42,351 bases of DNA. Source: Escherichia phage vB_EcoM-ep3. How positions within the stretch are numbered: the stretch's first letter is position 1; every line of letters starts with the position of its first letter. Both the position numbers and the translations under genes were made by a program. The notes below the pieces were generated by a model. The model did not search any database, was not told the DNA's origin, and was given only the letters and a program-made list of their open reading frames with translations. Shown piece by piece: positions 11,593 through 38,718 of this stretch. The DNA lies in sequence record NC_025430.1; one strand, 5' to 3'.

Positions 11593-12420
11593 ATGAAACA
11601 AGTAACGATTGACAACGTGCGCGAGCGCATAGCGGAACTGGAAATGGTCAACAGCCACGGTGAACTGTCACTGCGCGGCGAATTTGAACTGGCGTGTTTG
11701 CGGATGCTGGCCGATTCAATGGGCGGCGTTGATGATGACGTGCGCAACGTGGTGGCCCTGCTGGAAAACAACGAATGGGCCGAGCACTGCACTAAAACAG
11801 AGCTTGGCCAGCGCCTGGAAAGCGAAATAACCCGCCTGGTTGGGGACGTGCAGCCAGTGCCGGTGGTAAGCGATGCTGACCCATCACTAAACGCCATGAT
11901 GCGTGCGCTTGATGCGTTCTATGCTGATGACTATGTGCCGGAACGTGCCATGCTGGCAGCTTTCAGAATCCTGCTGGCGGATGTGCGTGAAAAGCCAGCG
12001 CCGGTGGTAACTGATGATAGGCTGCTGGAAAACCTTGAAACGCGCATCAAAAGCCTGGAAATCGGTGAACGCAAAGGCGCATTGAGCACGCATCAGGAAA
12101 TCAGCCTTAAGGCGTATCGCCTGACTGTCCAGTGTCTGCGTTCGTCTGCCATCAGTGATGAAACAGACAACACCGCGCAGCAGTTCGAATCGTTGGCTGG
12201 CATCAATGCGAACAAACATCATGACCAGTGGGTGAATTGCAGCGAAAGGCTTCCAGATCGCTTCCGTGACGTTCCTGTGATGCTTTCTGATGGTTCCCAG
12301 CGAGTTGGGCGCATCAATCATAAAGATACCTGGCTGATTGCCAGTTACCACCATACAAAGCACCAATATACAGGCGACGTTGTTATGTGGTTCGACACGC
12401 CTAATCCCACCAGCGAGTGA
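11593..12420 (+). CDS. DUF551-like domain protein
   Basis: 275 aa; GAGG RBS; C-terminal WVNCSERLPD...VMWFDTPNP resembles the DUF551 pattern found at the C-terminus of many lambdoid early proteins. Confidence 0.55.
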   Translation: MKQVTIDNVRERIAELEMVNSHGELSLRGEFELACLRMLADSMGGVDDDVRNVVALLENNEWAEHCTKTELGQRLESEITRLVGDVQPVPVVSDADPSLNAMMRALDAFYADDYVPERAMLAAFRILLADVREKPAPVVTDDRLLENLETRIKSLEIGERKGALSTHQEISLKAYRLTVQCLRSSAISDETDNTAQQFESLAGINANKHHDQWVNCSERLPDRFRDVPVMLSDGSQRVGRINHKDTWLIASYHHTKHQYTGDVVMWFDTPNPTSE

Positions 12421-12431
12421 AGCGGCAAGCC

Positions 12432-12749
12432 ATGAGCCTGGCAACCGATATTCTGTGGCGCGCTTTTGTTAAGCAGGCGAAACAGAAGCCAACGCCAAAA
12501 TCCGCACCAGTGGAGGCAAAACCAAAACCGGAAGTCACGGCAATCAGCAACCGCAACCTGCACCTGGCGCGCGTCCCTGGCTGTCAGCGTCTGGCTTGGG
12601 GTTGGCAGGTTACGTGCATTGATGGCAAGCAGAAACACAAACTGGGAACCTTCAAAACAATGCCACGCGCACGCATAGCATGGCGACTTTGGCACCTGTG
12701 GAAGCGCCGGGGTTTTGCCGACATCCCAACCGGACCAAACCACGCCTAA
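12432..12749 (+). CDS. hypothetical basic protein
   Basis: Trimmed to ATG 12432 (MSLATDILW); lysine/proline-rich N-terminal half; followed by a terminator. Confidence 0.45.
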   Translation: MSLATDILWRAFVKQAKQKPTPKSAPVEAKPKPEVTAISNRNLHLARVPGCQRLAWGWQVTCIDGKQKHKLGTFKTMPRARIAWRLWHLWKRRGFADIPTGPNHA

Positions 12750-12756
12750 ACACTAA

Positions 12757-12776
12757 CCGCCTTCGGGCGGTTTTTT
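12757..12776 (+). terminator. intrinsic terminator
   Basis: CCGCC-TTCG-GGCGG hairpin followed by TTTTTT (12771-12776). Confidence 0.8.
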
Positions 12777-12838
12777 ATTGCGCAAAAGATGACAAGTATG
12801 ACAAAATAACAACGTCACCAATAACAGAGGAATTCATC

Positions 12839-13120
12839 ATGATTGAACAAAAGCTAGACCGCATCATTGAACTGCTGGAAATCATCGCGGAAGCACAACC
12901 GAAACCGCGCGTTAGTCGTAGTCAAATCAGTGATGCAAAGAGCATTATCGTTTCGCACCGAGAACAACTGAGAGGAAAGCGCATCACGTTTGGTGAATTC
13001 TGTGAAATCATTGGCGTGGAGAATTCAAAGCAAAACCGATTAAAGTTTGGTGCTGCAATGACTGAGGCTGGAGTCAAACAATACAGAACAAAAAACGCAC
13101 GTTATTATTTATTTGCATGA
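12839..13120 (+). CDS. hypothetical protein (AT-rich cargo gene)
   Basis: Trimmed to ATG 12839 (MIEQKLDRIIELLEI) with AGAGGA 8 nt upstream; the longer ORF-track version would read through the upstream terminator; terminators on both sides. Confidence 0.5.
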   Translation: MIEQKLDRIIELLEIIAEAQPKPRVSRSQISDAKSIIVSHREQLRGKRITFGEFCEIIGVENSKQNRLKFGAAMTEAGVKQYRTKNARYYLFA

Positions 13121-31493: not shown

Positions 31494-32921
31494 ATGGCAG
31501 GTACTGATTTTTTACATGGCGTGGAGGTGCTGGAAATTGATTCCGGTTCACGCGTCATTCAAACCGTTAAATCAAGCGTCATCGGTATTGTTGGCACCGC
31601 GCCAAATGCTGACCCTGACGCATTCCCGCTAAACACCCCAACCCTGATTGCAGGCAGCCAGCGCGAAGCGGCCAAACTGGACATGCTTGGCACCGGTGAA
31701 GGCACCCTTCCCAAAGCACTGGATGCCATCCTGGACCAGATCGGCGCTGTGGTCATCGTTGTGCGTGTTGAAGAAGGCGAAAACGAAGCCGCAACGCTGG
31801 CCAACATCATGGGTGGAGTTAACGCATCAACCGGCAAATATGAAGGCGTTCACGCACTGCTTGGCGCTGAATCCGTTGTGGGCTACTCGCCGCGCATTCT
31901 GTGCGTTCCCGGCTTCACGCATACCCGCGTTCAGGATGGCGTCACCGCTATCACCATCGGCAACGGCGGCAGCGGTTACACCGAAGCGCCTACGGTCACC
32001 CTGGCTGGTGGCGGCGGTGGTTCTGGCGCAACTGCGCAAGCAACCGTGGTTGGTGGCGTCATCACCAAAATCATCGTCACCAACGCTGGCATGGGTTACA
32101 CCAAAGCGCCAACCGTCACCATCACTGGCGGCAACGGCACCGGCGCAACTGCAACCGCATCCGTTGGTATCGCAGCCAATGCCGTGGTTTCTGAACTGCT
32201 TGGCATCGCCAACCGCCTGCGTGCTGTCATCATCGCTGACGGTCCAAACACCAACGACGCTGACGCCATCGCCTACCGCAAAGACTTTGGCAGCAAGCGC
32301 GTTTATGTGGTTGACCCAAAAGTGCTGGTGCTTGACGAGGATGGCACCACGATTACTGACTGGGCATCGCCGCGCGTGGCTGGACTGATTGCCCGCATCG
32401 ACAACGAGCGCGGTTTCTGGTGGTCACCATCAAACCAGGAAATCTATGGCATCCAGGGCACGGCCAGAACCATTGATTTCACCCTGGGTGACACGTCCAG
32501 CCGTGCAAACCTGCTGAACGAAAACGAAGTCACCACCATCATTCGCCAGGACGGTTTCCGCCTGTGGGGCAACCGCACCACTTCCAGCGATCCGAAATGG
32601 GCGTTTCTGTGCGTTGTTCGCACGGCTGACATCATCAATGACAGCCTGTTGCGTGCACACCTGTGGGCCGTAGACCGTGGCATCACCAAACAATACGTCA
32701 ATGACGTGATTGAAGGCGTGAACGCGTACCTGCGCAACCTGGTGAGCCTGGGCGCAATTCTTGGCGGCACGTGTTGGGCTGACCCTGACTTAAATACTGC
32801 TGACCAAATCGCTGACGGTAAGGTATACTTTGATTTTGATTTCACGCCTGTTTATCCGGCTGAACACATTATCTTCCGCAGCCAATTGACCAACGATTAT
32901 ATTAGTGAGGTATTCGAATAA
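31494..32921 (+). CDS. tail sheath protein (P2 FI-like)
   Basis: 475 aa; N-terminus [20 protein letters not shown] and C-terminal [14 protein letters not shown]...CWADPD follow the P2 FI pattern; carries an internal Gly-rich tandem-repeat insertion. Confidence 0.9.
31941..32170 (+). repeat. internal tandem repeat within the sheath gene
   Basis: Two about 105-bp units encoding [25 protein letters not shown] and [24 protein letters not shown]; similarity visible at the nucleotide level. Confidence 0.6.
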
Positions 32922-33427
32922 TGGCCGCACGTGACGTTTTGAAAAACATCAACTTATTTGTTGATGGCCGTGGTTACGCGGGCCAGGTGGAGAGCGTCAC
33001 GCCGCCCACCTTAACCCTGCAAACCGAAGAATTCCGCGCAGGCGGCATGGATGCGCCCATTGATGTGACGTTGGGCATGGAAAAGCTGGAAGCCAGCTTT
33101 GCGCTGCGTGCTTATGATTCTGACGTGCTGGCGCTGTTTGGCCTGTCAGAAGGTGCAAGCGTTCCGCTGACGTTTCGCGGTGCGCTAGAATCCTATGACG
33201 GCAGCGTGAAAGCCGTTGTCATGAACATGCGCGGCAAAATCACCAGCATGGAGCCAGGCACCTGGACGCCTGGGGAACTGAGTTCCCTTAACGTCACTGT
33301 CAGCCTGAACTATTTCAAGCAGCAGCATAACGGAAAGACCATCCACGAAATCGACGTGGAAAACATGGTGCGCATCATCAACGGTGTAGACACCCTGGCA
33401 GCCATCCGTTCTGCGCTGGCGCTGTAA
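32921..33427 (+). CDS. tail tube protein (P2 FII-like)
   Basis: 168 aa; directly follows the sheath with stop/start overlap; size and position match FII. Confidence 0.88.
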   Translation: MAARDVLKNINLFVDGRGYAGQVESVTPPTLTLQTEEFRAGGMDAPIDVTLGMEKLEASFALRAYDSDVLALFGLSEGASVPLTFRGALESYDGSVKAVVMNMRGKITSMEPGTWTPGELSSLNVTVSLNYFKQQHNGKTIHEIDVENMVRIINGVDTLAAIRSALAL

Positions 33428-33434
33428 TTTTTAC

Positions 33435-33459
33435 GGCCAGTCATTTGGCTGGCCATTTT
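33435..33459 (+). terminator. weak terminator/attenuator after the tube gene
   Basis: GGCCAG-N8-CTGGCC hairpin followed by ATTTTC. Confidence 0.35.
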
Positions 33460-33487: not shown

Positions 33488-33772
33488 ATGGCTAAATTAC
33501 CTGATTATCTGAAATTCAACCACGAAACCGGCCACTGTGACATCACCCTGTCACGACCGCTGAAAATCGCAGGCGTTGACGTTTCCGTGCTGCGTATGCG
33601 CGAACCAACCGTGGCTGACCAGGAAATTGCAAGCGACATGGGCGGCAGCGATGCTGCGCGCGAAATACAGACGTTTGCCAACCTGTGTGAACAGGCACCT
33701 GATGACATCCGCCGCCTGCCGCTGAAAGATTACAAGCGTTTGCAATCCGCTTACATCAGTTTTTTAGATTAA
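33488..33772 (+). CDS. tail assembly chaperone (P2 gpE-like), zero-frame product
   Basis: 94 aa; sits between tube and tape-measure as in P2 E; ends just after a TTTTTTA slippery heptamer. Confidence 0.75.
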   Translation: MAKLPDYLKFNHETGHCDITLSRPLKIAGVDVSVLRMREPTVADQEIASDMGGSDAAREIQTFANLCEQAPDDIRRLPLKDYKRLQSAYISFLD

Positions 33773-33903
33773 GCCCGGAATACATACGTGCGGGCGCTTT
33801 GGCGCTCGCAAGTCATACGGGCTGGCAGTTATCGGAAATTCAAAGGTTGCGGGTTTCCCGTTTTGTGTGGTGGTTGGAAGGATTGCCGAAGGCTAACAGC
33901 TAA
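33488..33903 (+). CDS. tail assembly chaperone frameshift-extended product (E+E'-like)
   Basis: After a -1 slip the reading frame stays open for 45 more codons (RLSPEYIRAGALALASHTGWQLSEIQRLRVSRFVWWLEGLPKANS) to TAA at 33901-33903. Confidence 0.5.
33760..33795 (+). other. programmed -1 frameshift site: slippery heptamer plus downstream stem-loop
   Basis: T_TTT_TTA at 33760-33766 in the chaperone zero frame, 6-nt spacer, then stem-loop GCCCG-N13-CGGGC (33773-33795). Confidence 0.55.
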
Positions 33904-33974
33904 AACAATTGAAGGTAAAGTAAATATGCGTGTATCATTATAAATAACTTTAAGTAATTTAGTGGTGGTGCACG

Positions 33975-34658
33975 ATGAAGAAAGTAACCAAGAGTGAGGC
34001 GATAGAGCAAGGGCTTAATTATTACTTTACTGGTAAGCCATGTAAGCATGGGCACGTCAGCGAAAGGTATATAAAAGGCGGAGCTTGCGTGGCTTGCCAG
34101 AGAATTAAAAGCAAAGAGTTCAGTAAAAACAATGTTGAATCAGAAAGGATTAGGAAGCATCTAGATTATCTTGCGCACAAGGAAGAAAGGAACGAGAGAA
34201 ATAAATCTTGGCAAAAAAGAAACAGGGCAAAAGTCTCAGAGTATGTTGCAAAATGGAGGAAAAAAAACAGGGAGAAGGTGAACGAAATGGCCGCTGAGTT
34301 AAGGCGCAAAAACCCAGAAAAGCAAAAAGAGGCTGACAGGAGATGGAGAGCAAAAAACAAACACAAGGTGGCCAAGAAAGACGGTCTTAAAAGGGCAGCA
34401 AAACTGGCAAGAATTCCAGTTTGGTTTGGTGAATTTGATGATTTTGTGATTCAGGAAGCGCACACGCTGGCAGCGTTAAGAGGTGATGAAACCGGAATAC
34501 CCTGGCACGTTGACCACATGTTGCCAATGAGGGGGAGAAAAATTTCCGGGTTACACTGCGCGCATAATATCCAGGTGATTCCGGCAGCCATGAATGTGAG
34601 AAAAATCAACAAAATGGTTTTGACCAACCCACTAGAGTGGTTACGCGATGGCGTCTAA
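33975..34658 (+). CDS. HNH endonuclease (free-standing, homing-type)
   Basis: 227 aa; N-terminal Cys/His cluster (CKHGH...CVACQ), C-terminal HNH-like motif WHVDHMLP...LHCAHNIQVIPAAMNVRK; lysine-rich middle; AT-rich; inserted between chaperone and tape-measure. Confidence 0.65.
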   Translation: MKKVTKSEAIEQGLNYYFTGKPCKHGHVSERYIKGGACVACQRIKSKEFSKNNVESERIRKHLDYLAHKEERNERNKSWQKRNRAKVSEYVAKWRKKNREKVNEMAAELRRKNPEKQKEADRRWRAKNKHKVAKKDGLKRAAKLARIPVWFGEFDDFVIQEAHTLAALRGDETGIPWHVDHMLPMRGRKISGLHCAHNIQVIPAAMNVRKINKMVLTNPLEWLRDGV

Positions 34659-37005
34659 CAAGAAATTATCTGCAACAATAGTAATTGGCGGTGCCGTATC
34701 CAGCAGCCTGAAAGGCGCATTCAGCACCGTCAAATCTTCCGTTGACCAGGTTGGCGCAGCAATGGCCAAACTGGAACGCGAGCAACGACAACTAACCAAC
34801 GCCATCCAGACGTTTGGCCGCCAGGGCAAAAACGTTGATTCACTGCGCGCCAAGTACGCCGCCAACGTTTCTGCGGTGGACAAACTGCGCGCAGCCACCG
34901 AACGCCTGAAACGCGTGGAGGATGCCCGCGAACGCAACCTGGCGAAGCGCGACCAATACAAAGATGGGATCATGGGCACCATTGCCCTGGGTGCCACTAT
35001 CGCCGCGCCAATCAAAGCCGCGATGGATTTTGAAAGCACCGTTGCCGACATCAAAAAGGTAGTGGATGCGCCGAAGGGTGCCGACGAAGATACTTTCTTC
35101 AAAGCCATCAGCAAACAGGTTTTGGATATGTCCAAAACCCTGCCGATGACGGCCAACGAAATTGGCCGCATCTTTGCGCTTGGCGGCCAGTCTGGCATCG
35201 CAGCCGAAGATTTGGGCAAGTTCACAGAATCAGCCGTAAAAATGGGCGTGGCGTTTGATGTCAGCGCGGAACAGGCTGGCCAGTCAATGGCGGAACTGCG
35301 TTCTGCTTTCGGCATGACGCAAGACCAGGTGAACACGCTGGCCGACCAGATGAACTACCTGGACAACAACGGCAGCGCCGCAGCAAAAGATATTCTGGAA
35401 ATCGTCCAGCGCGTTGGGCCGCTTGGCAAGGTTGCTGGCACTGCTGCCGGTCAGATCGCCGCGATGGCATCAACACTGCGCGGCATGGGTGTGCAGAATG
35501 AAGTTGCCGCAACCGGCATTCAAAACTTCATGCTGGCGCTCACTGCTGGTGATGCTGCCACGAAGTCACAGAGGGCGGCCCTTGCCGAATTAGGCTACGG
35601 TTCACGCGAAGTGGCGAAGTCAATGCAGTTGGATGCGCAAAAAACCATGACGGTGATTCTGAAACAAATCAGAAAACTACCGAAGTGGAAACAGGCGTCA
35701 GCACTAACTGATTTATTCGGCAAAGAGTCGATTAAGGCCATCGCACCACTGCTGGATCAGCTTGAACAGCTTGAAGATAACTTCGCAAAGGTAGCCGACA
35801 AATCGAAGTATGCCGGTTCCATGCAGAAAGAATTTGAAGCGCGCGCGGCCACCACAGCAAACCAGCTTATTTTGTTCCGTAACCAGATCACCGGCCTGGG
35901 CGTCACGATTGGTTCAGTCCTGCTTCCTGCGGTCAACAGCGTCCTGCAAACCGTTGGGCCGTGGATTGGCAAAATCACTGAACTGGCTGACGCGCACCCG
36001 GTTGTCACCAAAGCCATTGTGGCCACGGCTGGCGCACTAATTACCATGCGCATTGCCACGTTTGCGGCTGGCTTCGCTTTCACGTACCTGCGCGGCGGCG
36101 CGCTGCGTGTTGTGGGTGCCCTGGCTGGTGCCCGCGCACAGATGGCACTGACGGCGGTTTCCGCGCGTGCAGTGGGTGCCGCAGCTACCGTGGCCAACGG
36201 CGGCCTGGTGGGCATGGCATCACGTGGAATCCCTGCCGTTGTTACTGGCGTGCGCGCCATCGGTGCGGCGTTCATTTCCACCGGCATTGGTGCCCTGATT
36301 ACCGGCCTGGCGCTTGGCGGCCTGTGGATTTACCGCAATTGGGCTGGCGTCAAAGCGTTCATGACCGGCACTTTGCAGGGCATCCAGCAAGGGTTGCAGC
36401 CTGTTACGGAGAAATTCCAGGCGCTGTGGGATAAGTTAGGACCAGTCAAAACCGCTTTCCAGTGGGTTGCTGACGCTGCTGGCAAGGCGTGGGATTGGTT
36501 CACCAAACTGGCCGAACCGGTGAGCTACAGCGGCGAAGAACTGAAAAAGGCCGGTGACGCTGGCCAGCAGTTCGGCAAGGCGCTGGCGGCAGGTATTGAT
36601 TTTGTGTTGGGGCCGATTCAGTTCCTGATTGATAAGATCATTTGGGTTTCTGACAACATTGGCGCGCTGACGCAAAAAGCCGTTGAGTTCAAAAACAGCG
36701 TTTCTGACATGGCTGGTGGTGCCTGGCAGAAAACGAAAGACTTTTTCAGCAACCCGTTTGGCGATGACGCGCCGCAGGGCAACGCGCTGACGACGCCGCA
36801 GACACCGGCCAGCGCATTGCCAGCGCCTGCCCTGGCGAACCGTGGCGGCAGTACATACACCGACAGCAGCACAACCACCATTCAGGTGACGCAGCGCCCT
36901 GGTGAGAACAACGCAGACCTGGCCAAACGCATTGCCGACGAACAGGAGCGCCGACGCCAAGTGCGCCAGCGCAGCATGATGAATGACGGAGTGACGGCAC
37001 CATGA
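34648..37005 (+). CDS. tail tape measure protein
   Basis: 785 aa; Ala/Gly-rich, long helical composition; position between chaperone and gpU. Confidence 0.9.
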   Translation: MASNKKLSATIVIGGAVSSSLKGAFSTVKSSVDQVGAAMAKLEREQRQLTNAIQTFGRQGKNVDSLRAKYAANVSAVDKLRAATERLKRVEDARERNLAKRDQYKDGIMGTIALGATIAAPIKAAMDFESTVADIKKVVDAPKGADEDTFFKAISKQVLDMSKTLPMTANEIGRIFALGGQSGIAAEDLGKFTESAVKMGVAFDVSAEQAGQSMAELRSAFGMTQDQVNTLADQMNYLDNNGSAAAKDILEIVQRVGPLGKVAGTAAGQIAAMASTLRGMGVQNEVAATGIQNFMLALTAGDAATKSQRAALAELGYGSREVAKSMQLDAQKTMTVILKQIRKLPKWKQASALTDLFGKESIKAIAPLLDQLEQLEDNFAKVADKSKYAGSMQKEFEARAATTANQLILFRNQITGLGVTIGSVLLPAVNSVLQTVGPWIGKITELADAHPVVTKAIVATAGALITMRIATFAAGFAFTYLRGGALRVVGALAGARAQMALTAVSARAVGAAATVANGGLVGMASRGIPAVVTGVRAIGAAFISTGIGALITGLALGGLWIYRNWAGVKAFMTGTLQGIQQGLQPVTEKFQALWDKLGPVKTAFQWVADAAGKAWDWFTKLAEPVSYSGEELKKAGDAGQQFGKALAAGIDFVLGPIQFLIDKIIWVSDNIGALTQKAVEFKNSVSDMAGGAWQKTKDFFSNPFGDDAPQGNALTTPQTPASALPAPALANRGGSTYTDSSTTTIQVTQRPGENNADLAKRIADEQERRRQVRQRSMMNDGVTAP

Positions 37006-37412
37006 CCAGTTTCACGATTTTAACCGGGCAGACCAACATCATGATGATGTTGGGCGGCTTCCAGTTCTGCATCCTTACTGCGGCATATCAGGAACTGAAC
37101 CGCCACAGCGAATATAAGTGGCCATCGCAGCACCGCTTTGGCCTGCGCCCATCATCGCAATTCGTGGGCATCGGAGAGGAAACCATCACCCTGGCTGGCA
37201 TCATTTACCCTGAATACCGTGGCGGGTTTCAGCAGGTGGAGCAAATGCGCAGCATGGCTGGCCGTGGTCAGCCGCTGTTGCTGGTTGATGGCCTGGGCAA
37301 ACTGTGGGGCCGTTGGGTGATTGAAGCTATTGACGAAAAACAATCATTGTTTGCGGCGTTCGGTGCGCCGCGCAAACAGGAATTCAATTTGCAACTGCGG
37401 CGGTTCAACTGA
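37002..37412 (+). CDS. tail protein U (P2 gpU-like)
   Basis: 136 aa; MMMLGGFQFCILTAAYQEL and FVGIGEETITLAGIIYPEY follow the P2 gpU pattern as I recall it. Confidence 0.85.
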   Translation: MTSFTILTGQTNIMMMLGGFQFCILTAAYQELNRHSEYKWPSQHRFGLRPSSQFVGIGEETITLAGIIYPEYRGGFQQVEQMRSMAGRGQPLLLVDGLGKLWGRWVIEAIDEKQSLFAAFGAPRKQEFNLQLRRFN

Positions 37413-37621
37413 TGCAAACTTACATTACCAAAGACGGTGACACGGCGGATTACATCGCCTGGAAATACTACGGCAACCAGGATGCGGGCACCGTGGAAGC
37501 ACTGGTGGACGCCAACAAGGGGCTGGCCGACCGTGGGCCTGTGTTGCCTGCTGGCCTGGTCATCAACCTGCCGGAAATTACGACACCAGCGACCACGCAA
37601 GGTATCAAATTATGGGATTGA
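37412..37621 (+). CDS. tail protein X (P2 gpX-like, LysM-like)
   Basis: 69 aa; DTADYIAWKYYGNQDAGTVEALVDANKGLADRGPVLPAG matches the gpX/LysM-like pattern. Confidence 0.82.
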   Translation: MQTYITKDGDTADYIAWKYYGNQDAGTVEALVDANKGLADRGPVLPAGLVINLPEITTPATTQGIKLWD

Positions 37622-38718
37622 CTGGAATTGCGCCAGCGTTTCGCGTGCTGGCCAACGGCGATGACATCACCGCCAAAATCAATGAACGACTGATAAGCCT
37701 TAGTCTGTCTGACGGCGTGGGGCTGGAATCTGACACGCTGGAAATCAGCCTGGCGGATGATGAACCGGCCAACCCAATCCAGATGCCGGAAACAGGCGCA
37801 GAACTGGAACTGTTCCTGGGCTATGACAACTGGACCCAACGCATGGGCCTGTTTATCTGTGACGAAGTGGAACTGGCTGGCTGGCCAGGCACCATGACCA
37901 TCAGGGCGCGCGCTGCCACCTATGACAAGTCAAAGGGCGGCAAAACCGACCTGCAAACGCAGAAATCACGAAGCTGGACCAAAGGCACGAAGTTTGGCGA
38001 CATGGTGAAGAAGATAGCCAGCGAACACGGCATGGAATCCGCCGTGTCAGAAAGCATGGCCAAAATCACCCTGCCCCACACCGACCAGGCCGATGAATCT
38101 GACCTGAACCTGTTGCTGCGCCTCGCCAAGAAATATGACGGCGTAGTGAAGCCAGCAGGCGGCAAAATCACGGTCACGAAGAAAGGCGAAGGCAAGACGG
38201 CCAGCGGCGAAGAACTGCCAACCATCACGCTGACGGCGCAGGATTGCACCGCATTCAGGCTGACCAGCCAGAAGCGCGAAAACGCAGGCACGGTGGTGGC
38301 TTACTACCAGGTGACGAAGAAGGCCGCGCGCAACGAAGTGAAGGTGGGCGAAGGTGAGCCGGTCAAACGGATTGGCAAATACTACCCGACGCAGGCAATG
38401 GCCCTGGACGCTGCCAAAGCCGAACTGGCCAAGCGCCAGCGCAACCAGGTGACCGTTGCCGTTACGCTGCCGGGTGACCCATCCATTGCCGCAGAATGCA
38501 AACTGGTGCTGGTTGGGTTCCGTGATGGCATTGATGGCGAATGGCTGATTACCCGCGCAGATCACCGGCTGGATGACAACGGCTATTCTTGCGACGTGGA
38601 AGCAACGAAGCCGAACAGCGAAGAAGAACCGAAGGTGGAAGTTATCGAGCGCAAGAAGCCGCAAGAAAGCGACCCGCCTGACGATGATGGCCCTGGGCAC
38701 GTCATCGAAGAAAAATAA
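37612..38718 (+). CDS. tail protein D (P2 gpD-like)
   Basis: 368 aa; N-terminus PAFRVLANGDDITAKINERLISLSLSD matches the P2 gpD pattern; last gene of the tail operon. Confidence 0.88.
   Translation: MGLTGIAPAFRVLANGDDITAKINERLISLSLSDGVGLESDTLEISLADDEPANPIQMPETGAELELFLGYDNWTQRMGLFICDEVELAGWPGTMTIRARAATYDKSKGGKTDLQTQKSRSWTKGTKFGDMVKKIASEHGMESAVSESMAKITLPHTDQADESDLNLLLRLAKKYDGVVKPAGGKITVTKKGEGKTASGEELPTITLTAQDCTAFRLTSQKRENAGTVVAYYQVTKKAARNEVKVGEGEPVKRIGKYYPTQAMALDAAKAELAKRQRNQVTVAVTLPGDPSIAAECKLVLVGFRDGIDGEWLITRADHRLDDNGYSCDVEATKPNSEEEPKVEVIERKKPQESDPPDDDGPGHVIEEK

Follow-up and report, generated by a model that had tools for sequence, protein, structure and literature searches.

The window analysed here is a 42,351-nt stretch of DNA from Escherichia phage vB_EcoM-ep3 (sequence record NC_025430.1), and its genome is that of a Jilinvirus-like (Iiscvirinae) myophage. 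The tail genes run in the order sheath-tube-chaperone-TMP-gpU-gpX-gpD, with the chaperone gene flanked by the genes for the tail tube and the tape measure protein (TMP). The region contains the following features:

31494-32921, tail sheath (PF04984 / PF17482)
32921-33427, plus strand, tail tube, the upstream neighbour of the chaperone gene (PF04985 Phage_tube, E = 1.8e-57)
33488-33772, plus strand, chaperone ORF, gpE-like, zero frame, 94 aa (from the ORF list; PF10109 match)
33760-33766, plus strand, slippery heptamer T_TTT_TTA, in X_XXY_YYZ phase in the zero frame
33766-33903, plus strand, -1 frame extension, E'-like, 45 codons and a TAA (from translation)
33772-33823, plus strand, stem-loop, a candidate stimulator, starting 6 nt past the heptamer
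33904-34647, insertion of ~745 nt, filling the interval from the E' stop to the ATG of the tape measure gene
33975-34658, plus strand, ORF of 227 aa carried by the insertion (phrog_1035 'endonuclease VII', E = 1e-18)
34648-37005, plus strand, tape measure (TMP), the presumed client of the chaperone (PF10145 PhageMin_Tail, E = 1.3e-38)
37002-37412, gpU (PF06995)
37412-37621, gpX / LysM (PF05489)
37612-38718, gpD (PF05954)

The chaperone ORF matches the Pfam family PF10109 Phage_TAC_7 ('E, or 41 or 14') with 64 bits against a cutoff of 25 (E = 1.3e-17), and it also matches phrog_166, 'tail protein'. The right-hand 22 kb of the window is 95.9% identical to phage ECOO78 across 86% of its length, and the chaperone region is nearest to phage ECO1230-10 (96%). 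The genome is in this respect a mosaic, its right half being nearest to a phage with the slip site A_AAT_TTT and its chaperone segment to one with the same T_TTT_TTA as the window, so that the type of slip site moves with the recombined segment.

The genes next to the chaperone gave rise to several further observations. A terminator-like hairpin (33435-33459; GGCCAGTC-ATTT-GGCTGGCC, then ATTTT) stands in the 60 nt that separate the tube gene from the chaperone gene; a simple terminator scan does not call it because its T tail has only four T. A rho-independent terminator is annotated at the equivalent intergenic position in the FoX3 record, and the window hairpin may be a partial terminator that cuts expression of the chaperone and TMP relative to that of the sheath and tube. 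The tube gene (PF04985) is labelled 'head closure' in many RefSeq/GenBank records of the group; this is a systematic PHROG-derived mislabel and not biology. The sheath protein (31494-32921) contains at about residues 165-235, N-terminal to its Pfam sheath domains, an internal Gly-rich duplicated segment that looks like an inserted repeat domain.

The 3' end of ORF 33488-33772 reads ...ATC AGT TTT TTA GAT TAA, and the first base of the zero-frame stop (TAA, 33770-33772) lies 4 nt past the last base of the heptamer. T_TTT_TTA is the sole in-frame X_XXY_YYZ motif of the 67-nt zone that is open in both frames, and within it a family-conserved T_TTT tetramer (33760-33763) sits on a conserved Phe codon (33761-33763). 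Translation of the -1 frame from 33766 gives RLSPEYIRAGALALASHTGWQLSEIQRLRVSRFVWWLEGLPKANS*, with its end at 33903. This frame is without ATG, GTG or TTG from 33706 to 33798, and the segment 33766-33903 appears to be readable only after a shift, which would give a predicted 138-aa fusion (...AYISFL/F-RLSPEYIRAGALALASHTGW...LPKANS). A Shine-Dalgarno-like upstream stimulator was not found within 25 nt of the heptamer. The first-pass annotation of this DNA had described the heptamer, the stop, the stem-loop and the 45-codon -1 frame, and all of these lie where it had placed them.

A heptamer followed by an open -1 frame is a weak criterion when taken alone. In-frame X_XXY_YYZ motifs (Y = A/T) occur at a rate of 0.0015 per codon across the window ORFs, the chance of a motif is estimated at ~3% for the 22-codon zone open in both frames, and 4 of the 134 window ORFs (those of at least 80 aa) have a heptamer with a -1 frame that stays open for 30 codons or more beyond the stop. 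GGGTTTT at 12710-12716 (G_GGT_TTT in ORF 12417-12749) was considered as a second frameshift candidate and rejected as an overlap with the next gene: the 123-codon open -1 frame at 12710 is that of the gene 12680-13120, whose own ATG (12680) lies upstream of the heptamer, and this heptamer is most likely fortuitous. Since the bare pattern is not rare by chance, the case for the chaperone gene stands on its context and on comparison with relatives.

In 33 phage records, a tblastn search with the conceptual fusion as query recovered both pieces, in two different frames and with a query coverage of at least 80%. An extension in the -1 frame follows the chaperone ORF in 16/16 GenBank relatives (Escherichia, Salmonella, Enterobacter, Klebsiella, Serratia, Pseudomonas, Burkholderia, Achromobacter, Xanthomonas, Acinetobacter, and Pasteurella phages), and the motif YIRxGxLALASHTGWxxxEIxxxRxSRFxWWLEGLPK is present in every one of them except the Pasteurella phage, which is more distant. 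A scan of IMG/VR placed the extension in the -1 frame at 80/80 further loci. Between the window and phage Bas97 there are 17 nucleotide differences in 96 nt of the extension; every one of the 16 differing codons is synonymous in the -1 frame, and in the other two frames none of the 16 is. The column entropy of 14 relatives is 3-periodic, at 0.64, 0.42, and 1.22 bits for -1 frame codon positions 1, 2, and 3. This pattern of substitution shows that purifying selection acts on the -1 frame. With no start in that frame from 33706 to 33798, independent initiation cannot reach the 11 conserved codons RLSPEYIRAGA, and the comparison indicates that translation of the frame continues that of the chaperone. 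Judged by these alignments, the chaperone feature lies far beyond chance. The records of close relatives hold no frameshift product, only a ~130-nt unannotated gap between the chaperone and TMP genes, and the 138-aa product is absent from the Jilinvirus records that we found (ECO1230-10, ECOO78, PT1, Bas97, Arya, and Alux-21).

The slip motif varies within the family. T_TTT_TTA is shared by the window, ECO1230-10, and Alux-21; A_AAT_TTT is found in Bas97, ECOO78, PT1, Arya, MQ-4, KA2-1, Mica, and Alexa; G_GGT_TTT in Mano; G_GGT_TTC in PPpW-3 and Persinger; an imperfect C_CGT_TTT in Murka and FoX3; and G_GGA_AAG in AFS-2018a. A perfect heptamer is present at 56/80 IMG/VR loci, most often as GGGTTTT (25), AAATTTT (12), GGGTTTC (5), or TTTTTTC (5), more rarely as TTTTTTG (4), TTTTTTA (2), AAATTTG (2), or AAATTTC (1), and it lies 3-6 nt ahead of the stop in 54 of these 56. 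The other 24/80 loci have the same Phe codon with T_TTY only (23 loci) or C_TTC (one locus). What is constant across the IMG/VR loci is a Phe codon UUY two codons ahead of the stop, preceded by a U at all except one locus. The corresponding residue, F92, is invariant in a 12-sequence alignment (A3) and nearly invariant in a 51-sequence alignment (A4). The codon (33761-33763) is the P-site codon of the window heptamer and the A-site codon of the relatives with A_AAT_TTT. In the window the T6 run 33760-33765 permits two registers, ...SFL-RLSPEY... or ...SFF-RLSPEY..., each of which gives 138 aa. It has been reported for E. coli that A-site UUN codons are on average among the more frameshift-prone, that H_HH.U_UU.Y is among the most efficient heptamers listed and U_UU.Y among the most shift-prone tetramers, and that shifting is poorer at heterogeneous A-site codons, UUA among them, so U_UUU_UUA is expected to be weaker than U_UUU_UUY (PMC4066793). 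A shift-prone UUN codon combined with the less favourable, heterogeneous UUA means that the window motif U_UUU_UUA is probably of moderate efficiency.

The stem-loop downstream of the window heptamer consists of an outer stem (33772-33777 / 33818-33823) around a hairpin (33789-33797 / 33802-33810). The minimum free energy of the 64-nt segment 33767-33830 is -28.3 kcal/mol (z = -3.86; 0/200 dinucleotide shuffles are as stable). Recoding without any change to the -1 frame protein mostly gives less stable folds (z = -2.15 for the native fold, whose stability 1.3% of recodings match). The structure also falls within the lowest 3.5% of neighbouring 50-nt windows, and it fits the 3' spacing of the -1 frameshift stimulators of the IS3/IS911/dnaX type (~5-9 nt after the heptamer). 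A search for conserved RNA structure gave an RNAalifold consensus of only -3.5 kcal/mol on 14 relatives; the window's pairs are formed in 65% of cells in relatives versus 64% in shuffles, with no covariation, and on these two results a stimulator conserved across the family was rejected. The region of the stop codon pairs with different partners in different relatives, and Alux-21, which has the same heptamer, has no notable downstream structure (z = +0.38 and +1.73). Over 69 distinct family members, a phylogenetically related and hence non-independent sample, the 50 nt past the slip site show a diffuse excess of structure over the local background (median percentile 0.22, with 29% of members in the lowest decile). 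The stem-loop is real, and because its pairs are not conserved its stimulatory role stays a candidate one, plausible for the window phage. Many relatives have a second hairpin, GCCAGCC/GGCUGGC, over the LASHTGW codons, which is absent in the window; over 40 nt separate it from the slip site, and the encoded amino acids account for most of it.

The 45-aa extension has no match in Pfam or NCBIfam at E <= 10, the GpE model PF06528 included, and among the PHROGs it has a weak match to phrog_10636, of unknown function (E = 0.0012). The family profile and the fusion of Pasteurella phage AFS-2018a align unbroken through the slip site (probability 98%, E = 1e-13, 116 columns), and the extension of that phage, behind G_GGA_AAG, is itself PF06528 Phage_P2_GpE (E = 9.4e-14). 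A direct hhalign comparison of the extension with P2 E' gives a weak match (E = 0.046), colinear at residues 107-133 of both. On these profile comparisons the link of the extension to PF06528 appears to be transitive only, by way of AFS-2018a.

The 138-aa fusion was modelled with AlphaFold2 from the 51-sequence alignment, with a mean pLDDT of 88 and a pTM of 0.68. The modelled N-terminal domain is a beta-hairpin with helices, and the extension forms three helices (97-111, 115-119, and 123-132); mean pLDDT in blocks of ten residues is 81-93 up to residue 130 and 75 in the last block. The PDB yielded nothing significant, either to a profile search of its sequences or to a Foldseek search with the model, and no solved structure of this type of chaperone was found there. 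The best structural match of the modelled fusion in BFVD is the 137-aa frameshift product of phage Mica (E = 9e-16, 134 columns), followed by weaker matches to 'tail assembly chaperone' models from other phages.

The closest characterized counterpart is phage P2, where a -1 frameshift in the FETUD tail operon has been described (Christie et al. 2002; Xu, Hendrix & Duda 2004, as these are cited in PMC3091744). The P2 record gives E as 91 aa and E+E' as 142 aa with a 'site of -1 translational frameshift', the sequence there being GGT TTT TTG (T_TTT_TTG), and both products are annotated as essential (P2 record; PMC3091744). P2 E scores 47.8 bits with PF10109, and E+E' matches both PF10109 and PF06528. 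The PF10109 N-terminal part is common to P2 E and the window ORF, the chaperone gene lies between the tube (FII) and tape measure (T) genes in both phages, the U-run heptamers are near-identical (T_TTT_TTG in P2, T_TTT_TTA in the window), and the sizes are similar (91/142 aa versus 94/138 aa). P2 E+E' overlaps T, and in relatives of the window phage the E' stop adjoins the T start. The differences are that the E' part of the window is too divergent for PF06528 (no match at E <= 10), that the heptamer-to-stop spacing is 3 nt in the window versus 18 nt in P2, that the window has a stable downstream stem-loop whereas P2 has none (z = +0.25; PMC3091744), and that the window phage belongs to Jilinvirus (Iiscvirinae) and not to Peduovirus.

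Two phages have the product annotated as a joined CDS, 'tape measure chaperone frameshift product': Burkholderia phage Mica (QPB08636.1) and Achromobacter phage Mano (QOE32754.1). These are homologues of the whole fusion at ~50% identity and share with the window both the gene order and the -1 extension motif LASHTGW...WWLEGLP; they differ from it in their slip motifs (A_AAT_TTT in Mica, G_GGT_TTT in Mano), which lie one codon upstream of the register of the window heptamer, and in both the frameshift is a curator's prediction. Phage lambda G/GT resembles the window site in that one start yields two chaperone forms, a short one and a less abundant one with a C-terminal extension, encoded in the interval between the major tail and TMP genes. 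It differs in its slip motif, G_GGA_AAG, and in that lambda is a siphovirus with a non-contractile tail. The lambda G:GT ratio of ~30:1 is needed for tail assembly, and sites of the P2 type shift 2- to 3-fold more often than lambda's (PMC5009743). A Pfam scan of the window ORF and of the fusion found no lambda-type chaperone family, PF10109 being the sole match. The first-pass annotation had read the site as a tail chaperone -1 frameshift, and this reading is supported by PF10109, the gene order, the conserved -1 extension, and the synonymous changes. Of the two precedents that it had named, P2 E/E+E' holds as a member of the same PF10109 family; lambda G/GT does not hold as a sequence relative and is a functional analogue only, so that the window site works like lambda G/GT and is not a member of its family.

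We therefore regard programmed -1 ribosomal frameshifting in a tail assembly chaperone gene of the P2 E/E+E' type as very probably the explanation of this locus. Most ribosomes would read 33488-33772 and make the 94-aa chaperone, and a minority would slip back one base on the U-run AGU_UUU_UUA, either with tRNA-Phe and tRNA-Leu on UUU-UUA re-pairing to UUU-UUU or with tRNA-Phe alone slipping on U_UUU. The slipped ribosomes would then read 33766-33903 and make the 138-aa fusion; we conjecture that the downstream stem-loop and the nearby stop codon may raise the efficiency of the slip. By analogy with lambda G/GT and P2 E/E+E' (PMC5009743), the shared N-terminal domain would coat the tape measure protein, and the helical E' extension would recruit the tube protein. 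If lambda and P2 are a guide, a fixed ratio of short to long form, set by the efficiency of the slip, would be needed for tail assembly, and neither form of the chaperone would be present in the virion. For the window itself, the sequence shows the slip signal, an architecture of two frames, and a -1 frame under purifying selection.

Other routes to the same product, or to none, have to be weighed against this explanation. RNA polymerase might drop one U on the T6 run 33760-33765, giving an mRNA that already encodes the fusion and is read with no ribosomal shift. Efficient transcriptional slippage in bacteria requires runs of ~8-9 or more; the window holds six consecutive T. Homopolymeric UUUUUUU may be avoided in genes owing to transcriptional slippage (PMC4066793). 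Most relatives attach the same -1 extension from only 3-4 T (A_AAT_TTT, G_GGT_TTC, C_CGT_TTT) or from G_GGA_AAG, where slippage by the polymerase is implausible, and the X_XXY_YYZ phasing in the zero frame is a constraint relevant to ribosomes only. We consider this route improbable. It is still less probable that E' is a separate small gene of 34 aa with its own TTG start at 33799. Such an ORF (33799-33903) does exist, and a stand-alone CDS of 35 aa has been annotated at the equivalent place in Murka (as 'tail assembly protein E'') and in FoX3 (as a hypothetical protein). Protein conservation, however, begins at the slip site, 11 codons (RLSPEYIRAGA) upstream of this TTG, in a stretch (33706-33798) where the -1 frame has no ATG, GTG, or TTG; no Shine-Dalgarno-like sequence was seen ahead of TTG 33799; and the profile alignment with AFS-2018a and the AlphaFold2 model both run unbroken over the junction.

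That there is no recoding at all, the two frames being a coincidence or the product of a homopolymer sequencing error or a frameshift mutation in one ORF, is the least credible of these possibilities and in our judgement very nearly negligible. The bare pattern does recur among the window ORFs (4/134), in one case clearly by accident. Against this, the same two-frame architecture is found at 80/80 IMG/VR loci and in 16/16 GenBank relatives, from phages of about ten host genera and in some cases without any homopolymer run, and purifying selection on the -1 frame argues against coincidence. The frameshift in the chaperone gene is, in sum, of an ordinary, textbook kind, and it is missing from the annotation in this phage group.

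The junction between E' and the tape measure gene is altered in the window phage. The E' stop and the TMP ATG abut (TAAATG) in ECO1230-10, Bas97, ECOO78, PT1, and Arya; in the window they are separated by the ~745-nt insertion, whose ORF has an HNH-like C-terminus (WHVDHMLP...NIQVIPAAMNVRK). A homologue of this ORF, 40% identical, occupies the same junction in Alux-21, and in 370 phage records homologues are found at loci unrelated to this one. The inserted gene looks like a free-standing homing endonuclease. A megablast search for the source of the insertion among complete E. coli genomes returned no match. The insertion alters the last residues of E' (PKANS versus PKA or PKKQN) and may break the translational coupling between E' and T. 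The gap between E' and TMP in Serratia phage MQ-4 was considered as another insertion and rejected; it holds no convincing ORF and probably reflects a late-called tape measure start.

Returning to ribosomal frameshifting as the explanation, the turnover of the slip motif permits a more specific proposal, which we offer tentatively. The conserved core of the signal in this family could be a single U_UUY on one Phe codon two codons before the stop, and not a heptamer. On that proposal, which we rate as doubtful throughout, the P-site context might be free to turn over (G_GG, A_AA, U_UU, or none in 24/80 loci), and the nearby stop together with unconserved local structure may possibly help the slip. 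The T6 run of the window might then, somewhat speculatively, be used with U_UUU in the A site or with U_UUU_UUA one codon later, producing SFF-R and SFL-R isoforms respectively. If the tetramer proposal is true, these phages would provide a natural series for the study of how frameshift efficiency is tuned and maintained under motif drift.

The finding adds one lineage to a conserved recoding event and illustrates how a slip motif turns over while its Phe codon stays fixed; it raises no new question. Its main value is for annotation. In several Jilinvirus records the chaperone goes by no more than 'tail protein' or 'hypothetical protein', and the Jilinvirus proteomes lack what is probably an essential protein of tail assembly; this bears on the therapeutic or engineered use of small myophages.
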